A stretch of DNA of 64,000 bases from a virus (IMGVR_UViG_3300026549_000046:1-64000); one strand, 5' to 3'. Shown: positions 23,041-50,299, counted from the stretch's first letter. Notes: a model not told the origin generated them from the sequence alone. Numbers and translations: made by a program.

Positions 23041-24309
23041 ATGACTAGAACGGAACGACAACAAGAAGCTGTTAGAAAGTGGATTAAGAATAAAGGTAAA
23101 GGCAGTTGGGAGTTTCCCACTGCCTTTGGTTAACTAGGAAAAACATATACAGCAATAACAGCTATTAAAGCTGTCCGTAAAAAATATCCAAATTTAAGAG
23201 TTCTTGTTGTTGTTCCAACTATTACTCTTAAAGATCAATGGTATGAAGAATTAAATAAAAATGGATTATATTTCAATATAGAAGTACAGGTTATAAATAC
23301 TATAATCAAACATGAATGGACGTGTGATATGCTTGTTATTGACGAAATTCACTCTGCAGCAGCTGATACTCTAAAAGAAACCTTTAACTGTGTAAAATAC
23401 AAACTTATTTTAGGTCTTACTGCAACTTTTGAAAGATTGGATGGAAAACATATATTACTTGAAAAATATGCTCCAATTATAGATAAAGTATCTACTATAG
23501 AAGCTATTGCTAATGAATGGGTTTCTGAATTTAAAGAATATCAAGTTCTTATAGAAGTCGATGATATTGAAGAGTATAAATCGTTGCAAAAAGAATGGCT
23601 ACAACATTTTGAATTTTTCCAATTTTCGTTTGACACTGCTATGAAGATGTGTGGACCTGAAGGATGGAAAGCTAAATTAAAATATCGTGATGAACTTTAT
23701 AAAGGAAATGATGAATCAAAAAAGAAAAAAATTCTTCAAGATATAAATTACCATTCTGCTGGATTTATGAGAACTATGACTAAACGCAAAGCATTCATTA
23801 ATAATCATCCAAAGAAAATTGAAATTGCTAAAAAAATAATGGAAGCACGTTCTAATTCTAAAATTATAACATTTAGTAATAATGTTAAAATGGCAGAAGC
23901 ACTAGAGAATGGAGAATACGTCTATACTGGAAAAACTAGTAAAAAAAGAGCTTCAGATATGATTGAAAAATACCTTTCTGGACAAATAAAGCATCTTCAT
24001 TCGTGTAAGCGACTTATTGAAGGGTTTAATGATCCAAATACAAGTGTTGCAATAATACTTGGAATGGATAGTAGTGAAAGACGTGCTACTCAGACTCGTG
24101 GAAGAGTAATCCGTAAAACTTCTACTAATAAACAAGCTGAAATATTTAATATTGTAATAAGGTTTAGTCAAGAAGAGAAGTGGTACAAAGACTCTCATAA
24201 AAATAGCAATTATATTACCATTGATGAACAAGGATTAGAACAAGTATTAAGAGGAGAAACTCCTACTCCTTATAAACAAAAATTAGGAGAAATCATGTTT
24301 AGATTCTAA
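23041..24309 (+). CDS. SF2 (DEAH/ResIII-like) helicase; Walker A interrupted by an in-frame TAA within a 9-nt insert
   Basis: MTRTERQQEA...FPTAFG*LGKTYTA...VLVVVPT...LVIDEIH...GLTAT...QTRGRVIR, all in one frame. The only internal stop is TAA 23131-23133. The ORF track start at 23329 misses motifs Q, I and Ia. Confidence 0.85.
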
Positions 24310-49216: not shown

Positions 49217-49494
49217 AAGAAATAAATCTTTATAATCGTGACAGAGCTAATTTACGGTTAATAAAATCTGATAAGCAAATAGATAAAAATATTTGGGTAT
49301 GGTATTTAGACGTTGACAAAGAACACAAATATGTACTTGATTTTTGTAGATATATTGGAGATAACTTTTTAGAACCAGAAGCTATTGATCCATCGGGGGG
49401 TCCTATGATTAATTTAGGGGATGAATTTGAAGGAAAATATAAGATAGTTAAAATTAATTCTGTTAATAATATTTGGATAAGTGAACTTCAATGA
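49213..49494 (+). CDS. Hypothetical protein
   Basis: IDPSGGPMI motif; likely ATG at 49213. Confidence 0.7.
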   Translation: MKEINLYNRDRANLRLIKSDKQIDKNIWVWYLDVDKEHKYVLDFCRYIGDNFLEPEAIDPSGGPMINLGDEFEGKYKIVKINSVNNIWISELQ

Positions 49495-50299
49495 AGACAA
49501 AGAACTCTTAAAAGACTATTTTAAGGATATATCAAAATATCCAGTTCTTTCTAGTGAAGAGCAAATTGAATTAGCTAGGAAAGTAAAGAATGGGGATAAT
49601 AAAGCTAAAGATAAATTAATAACTTCAAATCTTAGATTTGTTATTACTTGTGCTAGACAATATTCTGGACAAGGAGTTCCTTTAATAGATCTTATAAATG
49701 CAGGAAACTATGGACTACTTTTAAGTTGTGCTAATTTTGATCCAGAAAGAGGCTATAAGTTTTTAAGTTTTGCAGTTTGGTATATTAGAAGAGAGATAAT
49801 TAAAGAAATTTATAATAACGGAAGAACAATAAGATATCCTATTACATATATAAGTAAAATAACGAAAGTAAAAAAAGCTTATGATGAATATGTTTTAAAA
49901 TATCAAAAAGAACCCTCTGACGAGGAGTTAATTAAATTAACTAATTTAACTGAAAAACAGTATAATTCTGTTATAACAAACAAATCTTATTGTCAATCCA
50001 TAGATACACCAATTTCAAAGAATGAAAAAACTACTATAGAAGATATATTAGAAGATAATAGTAATTCTAGTATTGATTCTTTTGGTGTTGAAGCTATTGA
50101 AAATTCCTTAAAGATTCTCAATCCTAAAGAATATTTAGTTATAACTAAATTTTATGGTCTATGTGGAAATCAAGAAAGTGCCATAAAAGATATTGCTAAA
50201 GAATTAGGACTAGGAGATGAAAGAATTAGACAAATTAGAAAATCTGCAATAAAAAAATTAAAAAGTAGGTGCGGAAAAACTTTAAAAACATTATTATGA
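49481..50299 (+). CDS. Sigma-70 family RNA polymerase sigma factor
   Basis: LITSNLRFVIT.ARQY...DLINAGNYGL...FDPERGYKFLSFAVWYIR; region 4 IAKELGL..ERIRQI. Confidence 0.93.
   Translation: MNFNEDKELLKDYFKDISKYPVLSSEEQIELARKVKNGDNKAKDKLITSNLRFVITCARQYSGQGVPLIDLINAGNYGLLLSCANFDPERGYKFLSFAVWYIRREIIKEIYNNGRTIRYPITYISKITKVKKAYDEYVLKYQKEPSDEELIKLTNLTEKQYNSVITNKSYCQSIDTPISKNEKTTIEDILEDNSNSSIDSFGVEAIENSLKILNPKEYLVITKFYGLCGNQESAIKDIAKELGLGDERIRQIRKSAIKKLKSRCGKTLKTLL

Follow-up and report, generated by a model that had tools for sequence, protein, structure and literature searches.

How a phage obtains an intact helicase from a gene whose frame is closed by a stop codon inside a catalytic motif is the question raised by this locus, which lies in a 64,000-nucleotide stretch of DNA (the window) from the genome record of a rumen phage (132,047 bp, 28.5% G+C, ~73% complete).

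A helicase frame broken within its phosphate-binding loop

The gene starts at an ATG at position 23041, and its first 30 codons (23041..23130, + strand) encode the Q-motif region and the first half of the Walker A motif (PTAFG), ending in GGT for Gly30 (23128..23130, +), the proposed take-off codon. This codon is followed directly by an in-frame TAA (23131..23133, +), then by CTA (23134-23136) and by GGA (23137..23139, +), the proposed landing codon, after which decoding would restart at AAA (Lys31) in AAA ACA (23140-23145). Read as PTAFG-TAA-CTA-GGA-AAA-ACA, the gene is broken inside the P-loop, between its G and its K. Downstream of the TAA the same frame (CTA GGA AAA ACA) is unbroken to the stop codon at 24307-24309, and codons 31 to 419 plus that stop (23140..24309, +) supply the GKT of Walker A, DEIH, TAT, motif VI, and the Helicase_C region. 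An earlier note on this DNA had read the site as PTAFG-stop-L-GKT with 9 nt in excess and the rest of the gene intact; both statements agree with the coordinates, with a frame that is open from 23134 to the final stop, and with uninterrupted homologues, which read PTAFGKT.

Pfam searches with the read-through product matched ResIII (58.4 bits, 1.1e-15; cut-off, 22.5), Helicase_C (38.2 bits, 1.9e-9; cut-off, 23.5), and DEAD (33.3 bits, 4.9e-8; cut-off, 26). The SF2 motifs DEIH, LTATF, and QTRGRVIR lie in one chain, in which motif I is continuous only when the 9 nt are skipped. By these motifs and domain matches, the gene product is an SF2 helicase of the ResIII/DExH type. It is encoded once in the 132-kb record, within a replication module that includes DnaB-like and AAA_24 genes.

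Among 5.8 billion proteins searched, 2114 homologues were found. Those that are full-length and uninterrupted are 418 to 420 aa long, and all carry exactly PT[AG]xGKT; an uninterrupted homologue matched the PHROG DNA helicase family (8.5e-43). Since these proteins read FPTAF-GKT, the window gene contains exactly 9 extra nucleotides, namely, the putatively untranslated gap TAA CTA GGA (23131..23139, +), which is missing from uninterrupted homologues. Many close homologues are annotated as fragments of 312 to 394 aa, the lengths to which gene callers cut insert-bearing helicases, so that essential genes are misannotated as truncated.

The genetic code of this phage does not account for the stop. 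When TAG was read through, open reading frame coverage rose from 55% to 89% and the longest frame grew from 771 to 2886 aa, showing clearly that this phage uses TAG as a sense codon. Because the recoded codon is TAG and the stop here is TAA, amber recoding leaves the in-frame stop unexplained, as the earlier note had argued. Treating TAA as sense raised coverage of the genome record only trivially and did not lengthen real genes. Three tRNA genes (Pro, Thr, and Ser) were found in the 132-kb record, and no suppressor tRNA was found there.

We also looked for a second hop site in the 132-kb genome by scanning for long open stretches without an early ATG, which gave a noisy list and no clear case. 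The best candidate, a 272-codon frame without an ATG at 49481-50299 (+), was rejected because it is a sigma-factor gene that merely does not begin with ATG; it encodes a sigma-70-like factor with helix-turn-helix region 4 at its C terminus, and its start is probably a non-ATG codon near 49481.

Mini-inserts and a 5' hairpin in related phages

The DNA of relatives was retrieved for homologues that had been called as fragments, from JGI, ENA, NCBI, and Logan assemblies of many rumen samples. Most of the relatives fetched carry either a mini-insert or an intron at the same site; L177 instead has an in-frame TAG in its helicase (L177:620-700), which aligns with the conserved Gln of EVQVINT and fits TAG being read as Gln. 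Counting that of the window, 14 distinct mini-inserts of 5, 6, 8, 9, or 10 nt were found in these related rumen phages, all of them between the Gly of PT[AG]FG and the Lys. Since the contigs come from independent assemblies of many rumen samples, the insert is not an assembly artifact. Among 164 loci with a complete C-terminal match, some of which are one contig present in two collections, 135 are uninterrupted, 17 carry a mini-insert, 9 carry a large insert (285 to 1187 nt), and 3 could not be scored.

Written as take-off codon/gap/next codon, the window has GGT/TAACTAGGA/AAA (9 nt). The 10-nt gaps are GGC/TAACTAAGGA/AAA (L001-4, L010, L011, and L090), GGC/TAAGTAAGGA/AAA (L171), GGC/TGAGTAAGGA/AAA (L092), GGC/TAACTGAGGA/AAA (L176), GGC/TGACTAAGGT/AAA (L097), and GGT/TAACTAAGGT/AAA (L179). 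The remaining variants are GGT/TAACAAAGA/AAG (L094; 9 nt), GGC/TAAATGGA/AAA (L174; 8 nt), GGC/TAAGGT/AAA (L089; 6 nt), GGA/TAAGGT/AAA (L175; 6 nt), GGC/TAAGGC/AAA (L180; 6 nt), GGC/TGAGT/AAA (L095; 5 nt), and GGT/TGAGC/AAA (L173; 5 nt). The exact 9-nt version of the window occurs in this record only and differs from the common 10-nt form by the lack of one A.

The interior of the insert varies, and its two ends are far more constant. A stop codon stands directly 3' of the Gly codon in 14/14 variants, as TAA or TGA and never as TAG, and the base that follows this stop is never T in the 14 variants. The take-off codon reads GGY in 13 variants, the exception being a GGA. A second Gly codon directly precedes the Lys codon in 11 variants, and the landing position is AGN in the other three (L094, L095, and L173, with AGA, AGT, and AGC), where 1 or 2 of 3 base pairs could form. 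The alignment of orthologs thus bears out a Gly-stop-(N)n-Gly insert conserved at one site. The caveat in the earlier note that GGT and GGA differ at the wobble base is a real one, given that no more than two variants have the same codon at take-off and landing (GGT...GGT in L179 and GGC TAA GGC in L180); it is the glycine identity of the landing codon that is largely kept.

The 10-nt gaps have a further regularity. Every one of them (L001:2801-2812 and others) has the form stop-N-stop-GGW, with one stop in the upstream frame after the take-off codon and the other in the downstream frame before the landing codon, and both remain TAA or TGA although the sequence varies.

Immediately upstream of the take-off codon lies a hairpin (23098..23127, +) of 9+4 bp with a one-base bulge and a 3-nt loop, the 3' arm of which ends at the base before that codon. 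The 13-bp structure that the earlier note had described at these positions is therefore present, and its predicted stability of -18.1 kcal/mol was reached in 0/1000 synonymous-codon shuffles (mean, -7.1; standard deviation, 2.8); within a 91-nt context, its z-score is -2.6. Each of the 18 insert alleles examined has such a hairpin, with a stability of -15.8 to -21.9 kcal/mol and a 3' arm that ends at position -1 (P = 0.000 to 0.024 against 1000 synonymous-codon shuffles), whereas intron-bearing and distant uninterrupted alleles were no outliers among their shuffles (P = 0.08 to 0.66).

Four sequence versions of the hairpin occur among the insert alleles, with outer stems AAAGGCAGT / ACTGCCTTT (the window's type), GAAGGCAG / CTGCCTTC (L174), GAACGCGG / CCGCGTTC (L173), and GAAC-CCGGTA / TACCGG-GTTC (the L089 group). 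The covariation check that the earlier note had proposed could be made between L173 and L174, which share a register and differ by two compensatory double changes; strict column-wise covariation over all hairpins is inapplicable, since the four versions lie in different registers and only these two share one. Several versions contain G-U pairs, an indication that the folded molecule is RNA and not DNA. Hairpins also occur outside the insert alleles, but in plain and intron alleles they are weaker or missing: within the clade, three uninterrupted alleles retain one (L009, -16.3; L169, -14.8; L062, -14.1), and other such alleles (-10.7 and -6.5) and an intron allele (-7.5) have still less stable structures. 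A role as a transcription terminator was discarded, as no terminator-like site was found.

With the insert removed, every complete allele has a clean frame of 418 to 419 codons, such that the insert is the sole defect. Between insert-bearing alleles, which differ by dS values of 0.2 to 1.0, Nei-Gojobori estimates of dN/dS are 0.02 to 0.3 over codons 1 to 30, 0.06 to 0.4 over codons 31 to 96 (after the stop and before any in-frame ATG), and ~0.1 beyond codon 96. The window allele and its closest relative, the uninterrupted L169, give a dN/dS of 0.04 at a dS of 0.75. Both sides of the insert are therefore under purifying selection (dN/dS of ~0.02 to 0.4), another check that the earlier note had named. 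Given the low dN/dS at these dS values, the intact frames, and the single gene copy, a full-length protein that spans the gap appears to have been selected for a long time.

A quick maximum-likelihood tree unites all mini-insert alleles in a single clade (SH-aLRT, 98), among whose members three uninterrupted alleles and the intron alleles are nested. This topology fits one old gain of the insert followed by losses or by replacement through recombination; since the gene is visibly mosaic, we place little weight on the order of these events. Recombination has made mosaics of the helicase alleles: over codons 91 to 120, the window is 84 to 88% identical to L169, L171, and L097 and 61 to 72% identical to most other close alleles, and its first 90 nt are nearest to insert alleles (96% to L011) and not to L169 (87%), the nearest allele overall. 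A comparison that sought a cassette-like jump in identity around the insert was uninformative, the gene being mosaic throughout.

A candidate stop-hop and the competing explanations

Gap lengths of 5, 6, 8, 9, and 10 nt need frame shifts of +2, 0, +2, 0, and +1, respectively, and therefore only a mechanism that is independent of frame fits all variants. A programmed +1 or -1 frameshift was rejected on this ground, as no single fixed shift provides 0, +1, and +2. These comparisons strongly suggest that the insert is skipped in some way during expression, whatever its frame. As to how, we favor, at a probability of roughly 0.62, the reading that the ribosome crosses the gap, with the 9 nt at 23131-23139 serving as a short element for programmed translational bypass (a stop-hop). 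The earlier note had arrived at bypassing from the window itself, and the family of inserts, the kept hairpin, and the two-sided selection lend this reading support from comparison.

In the proposed sequence of events, the ribosome would translate 30 codons and stall with GGT in the P site, paired to peptidyl-tRNA-Gly, and with TAA occupying the A site. Termination would be slow, and by this time the 5' arm and loop of the hairpin would already be outside the ribosome, with the 3' arm directly behind the P site. Refolding of the hairpin would then pull the mRNA forward, the tRNA would release its codon, the mRNA would slide by 9 nt, and the tRNA would re-pair on GGA. Lys-tRNA would next decode AAA, yielding a normal 419-aa helicase with PTAFGKT. 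The pull exerted by refolding could extend up to about the length of the arm, which roughly agrees with gaps of ≤10 nt. A role for refolding in pulling the mRNA forward has been proposed for the 5' stem-loop of T4 gene 60 (10.1101/2024.12.09.627546; 10.1101/2022.08.31.505936).

Two features of this proposal deserve comment. The GG...GG flanks could be a 2-nt repair duplication left by the insertion event and not a selected landing codon. Folding revealed no gene 60-like take-off stem-loop, the only strong helix being wholly 5' of the take-off codon, and when the variants were compared, the take-off codon had no consistent pairing. Candidates for a shared take-off stem-loop or a downstream barrier hairpin, namely, CCTT/AAGG in the 10-nt class and ACAGCT/AGCTGT ~20 nt downstream, were set aside because, by eye, they are not kept across variants. 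Unassisted short hops are inefficient in E. coli.

Among the competing explanations, the one that survives best is the removal of the mini-insert from the mRNA, by an unknown form of micro-splicing or by cutting and ligation, with translation of the resulting continuous message. Like bypassing, such removal would be independent of frame and would fit the selection data; relatives have introns at this very site, and the hairpin could mark a site of processing. However, no bacterial or phage system that excises 5 to 10 nt is known, and a ribozyme would need far more sequence than these inserts offer. Removal from the RNA also gives no reason for the stop after the Gly codon in 14/14 variants or for the terminal Gly codon in 11/14. 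Excision of the bases from the RNA would leave a kept stop and a kept Gly codon without a function; they read instead as the signals of gene 60, in which the Gly take-off codon has a stop beside it and landing is on another Gly codon. We therefore regard removal from the mRNA as improbable.

Somewhat less probable still is that the gene is expressed as two polypeptides, a 30-aa peptide and a separately started 389-aa protein, which then assemble. Purifying selection on both parts would be expected of such an arrangement, and split genes do exist beside homing elements in phages, as with T4 genes 39 and 60. Nevertheless, no variant has an in-frame ATG, GTG, or TTG at or just past the insert, the first in-frame ATG being codon 97, and the break between G and K means that two chains would have to rebuild a single phosphate-binding loop.

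For the window alone, readthrough of the TAA could be envisaged, given that its 9-nt insert is in frame, that three extra residues (G-X-L-GKT) would still fit the loose Walker A pattern A-x4-GKT, and that the phage already recodes TAG; in a record that is ~73% complete, a suppressor tRNA could also be missed. We consider this explanation doubtful in the extreme, since the 132 kb contain no suppressor tRNA, TAA taken as sense lengthens no real genes, and all uninterrupted homologues have exactly PT[AG]xGKT. As a mechanism common to the family, TAA reassignment was rejected, for the additional reason that 9 of the 14 variants (5, 8, or 10 nt) are out of frame.

Hardly any weight is left for an inactive gene (a recent lesion, a pseudogene, or an assembly error) or one that functions only in rare DNA revertants, for although the stop codon sits in a catalytic motif and the exact 9-nt version occurs in one record, the recent inactivating insertion that the earlier note had offered as an alternative is contradicted by the insert family in many independent assemblies, by the single copy in the record, and by an insert that is the sole defect in 418 to 419 codons with a dN/dS of ~0.1 at dS values of up to 1.

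Homing introns at the same site and relation to known bypass systems

The Gly-Lys junction at which the mini-inserts lie is also an intron site. In relatives whose exon 1 ends in GGT and whose exon 2 starts with AAR, this junction holds inserts of 1156 to 1187 nt with an endonuclease gene, which is of the LAGLIDADG type in L005 (1.2e-6) and of the GIY-YIG type in L031 (1.3e-11). Members of this family include L005:1836-3015, L031:1314-2500, and L132:830-2000, as well as inserts in L059, L085, and L135; L006:2731-3015 is a 285-nt derivative without an open reading frame. Exon 1 always ends in U and the large insert always in G, as in group I introns, and the 3' 230 nt of the large inserts share a common fold in which 24 of 47 predicted pairs have compensatory changes. 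Rfam searches of the large inserts gave no match at gathering scores and only chance-level matches at E values of up to 5, with no group I match among them, and the assignment as introns therefore rests on the end bases, the endonuclease genes, and the covariation. The insert of the window cannot itself be a group I intron, as it is 9 nt long and a ribozyme core needs ~200 nt or more.

The conserved intron end is GATAACAAAACTG; the gap of L094 starts with TAACAAA, and those of the 9- to 10-nt class start with TAAC. On the strength of these 4 to 7 shared bases, the mini-insert may be the leftover of the 3' end of a deleted intron. The earlier note had offered an intron scar as an alternative to bypassing, and it was probably right about origin, given the endonuclease-bearing introns at the same site; a scar leaves the expression of the gene unexplained.

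An insert of 5 to 10 bp would split the target of the endonuclease, as the gene 60 insert does for MobA, and may protect the phage from cleavage and invasion. Self-immunity of the kind seen with T4 MobA was rejected for this phage, because the genes neighboring the helicase contain no endonuclease domain and the record contains no homologue of the LAGLIDADG or GIY-YIG proteins of the introns. More broadly, short hairpin-driven stop-hops might be a general means by which phages tolerate tiny inserts that destroy homing-endonuclease targets in the DNA of the helicase P-loop, with the slide set mainly by hairpin refolding and with 1 or 2 landing pairs being enough. We offer this generalization tentatively, as a possibility with somewhat more against it than for it. 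A slide driven by refolding, with 1 or 2 anticodon pairs, would explain both the AGN landing codons and the upper limit of ~10 nt.

To our knowledge, the natural cases of programmed bypassing are essentially limited to T4 gene 60, with its homologues, and a single group of yeast mitochondria. In gene 60, bypassing is signaled by a stop that follows the Gly take-off codon, by a second Gly codon for landing, and by a 5' stem-loop that folds as it leaves the ribosome (bioRxiv 10.1101/2022.08.31.505936; 10.1101/2024.12.09.627546), and its insert protects against the MobA endonuclease (bioRxiv 10.1101/2022.08.31.505936). The helicase locus resembles the gene 60/MobA cassette in having the stop directly 3' of the Gly take-off codon (14/14 variants) and a 5' hairpin (18/18 alleles), in the position of the insert at a homing target in an essential gene of DNA metabolism, and in its independence of frame. 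It differs in gap size (50 nt in gene 60 and 5 to 10 nt here), has no sequence homology to gene 60, and lacks a stem-loop that holds the take-off codon. Whereas gene 60 is a topoisomerase gene beside mobA and has matched codons, here the gene encodes an SF2 helicase with no adjoining endonuclease gene, the take-off and landing codons are mostly nonidentical, and bypassing is proposed from sequence. The gene 60 homologues found by Manning and Atkins were confined to topoisomerase genes of myoviruses, with similar bypassing unreported in other phages (bioRxiv 10.1101/2022.08.31.505936).

Shorter counterparts of gene 60 have long been expected, and as of 2016 no natural in-frame stop hops were known (Atkins et al. 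2016; PMC5009743). The synthetic stop-hops described in E. coli, which are inefficient and use 9 nt for one amino acid (PMC5009743), have their exact form, GGC TAA GGC, in L180; L089 and L175 have Gly-TAA-Gly with a wobble difference, and the window has one extra codon. In contrast to those constructs, the present elements are natural, are accompanied by a hairpin under selection, and are conserved within a phage clade. Landing with minimal pairing has been reported, as has pairing at two of three positions in yeast mitochondria (PMC5009743). The byp elements of Magnusiomyces capitatus mitochondria (81 inserts of 27 to 55 nt) are likewise disruptive inserts in essential genes that translation renders harmless, but they are mitochondrial, longer, GC-cluster-like, and spread over many genes, with an unused sense codon in the A site, whereas the inserts described here occupy one site in one gene and have a true stop in the A site. 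The terminase genes of Streptomyces phage Hau3 and prophage StrepC.1 (PMC5009743, PMC10732093) offer another candidate short gap with a slow A-site codon and support from sequence only; they differ in the use of a rare UUA codon, the proposed regulatory role, and the gene concerned, and no family of 5' hairpins has been described for them.

We found no description of this helicase case, and no report of a natural short stop-hop, in the literature searched. If the stop-hop reading is true, the helicase gap would be a short natural counterpart of the gene 60 bypass and would once more tie bypassing to the conflict between phages and homing endonucleases. The helicase family forms a natural series of 14 gap variants, 4 hairpin versions, and uninterrupted and intron alleles of the same gene, and as such is a ready-made mutational set for the minimal needs of bypassing with respect to the stop codon, the 5' hairpin, and landing pairing.

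A second insertion site was observed in the same helicase gene, in motif VI after QRRG (L032:3557-4903; also L144 and L082), and in L126 an insertion lies near residue 379. The motif VI insert is ~1.35 kb long and carries a 335-aa GIY-YIG-like open reading frame that contains 4 in-frame TAG codons.
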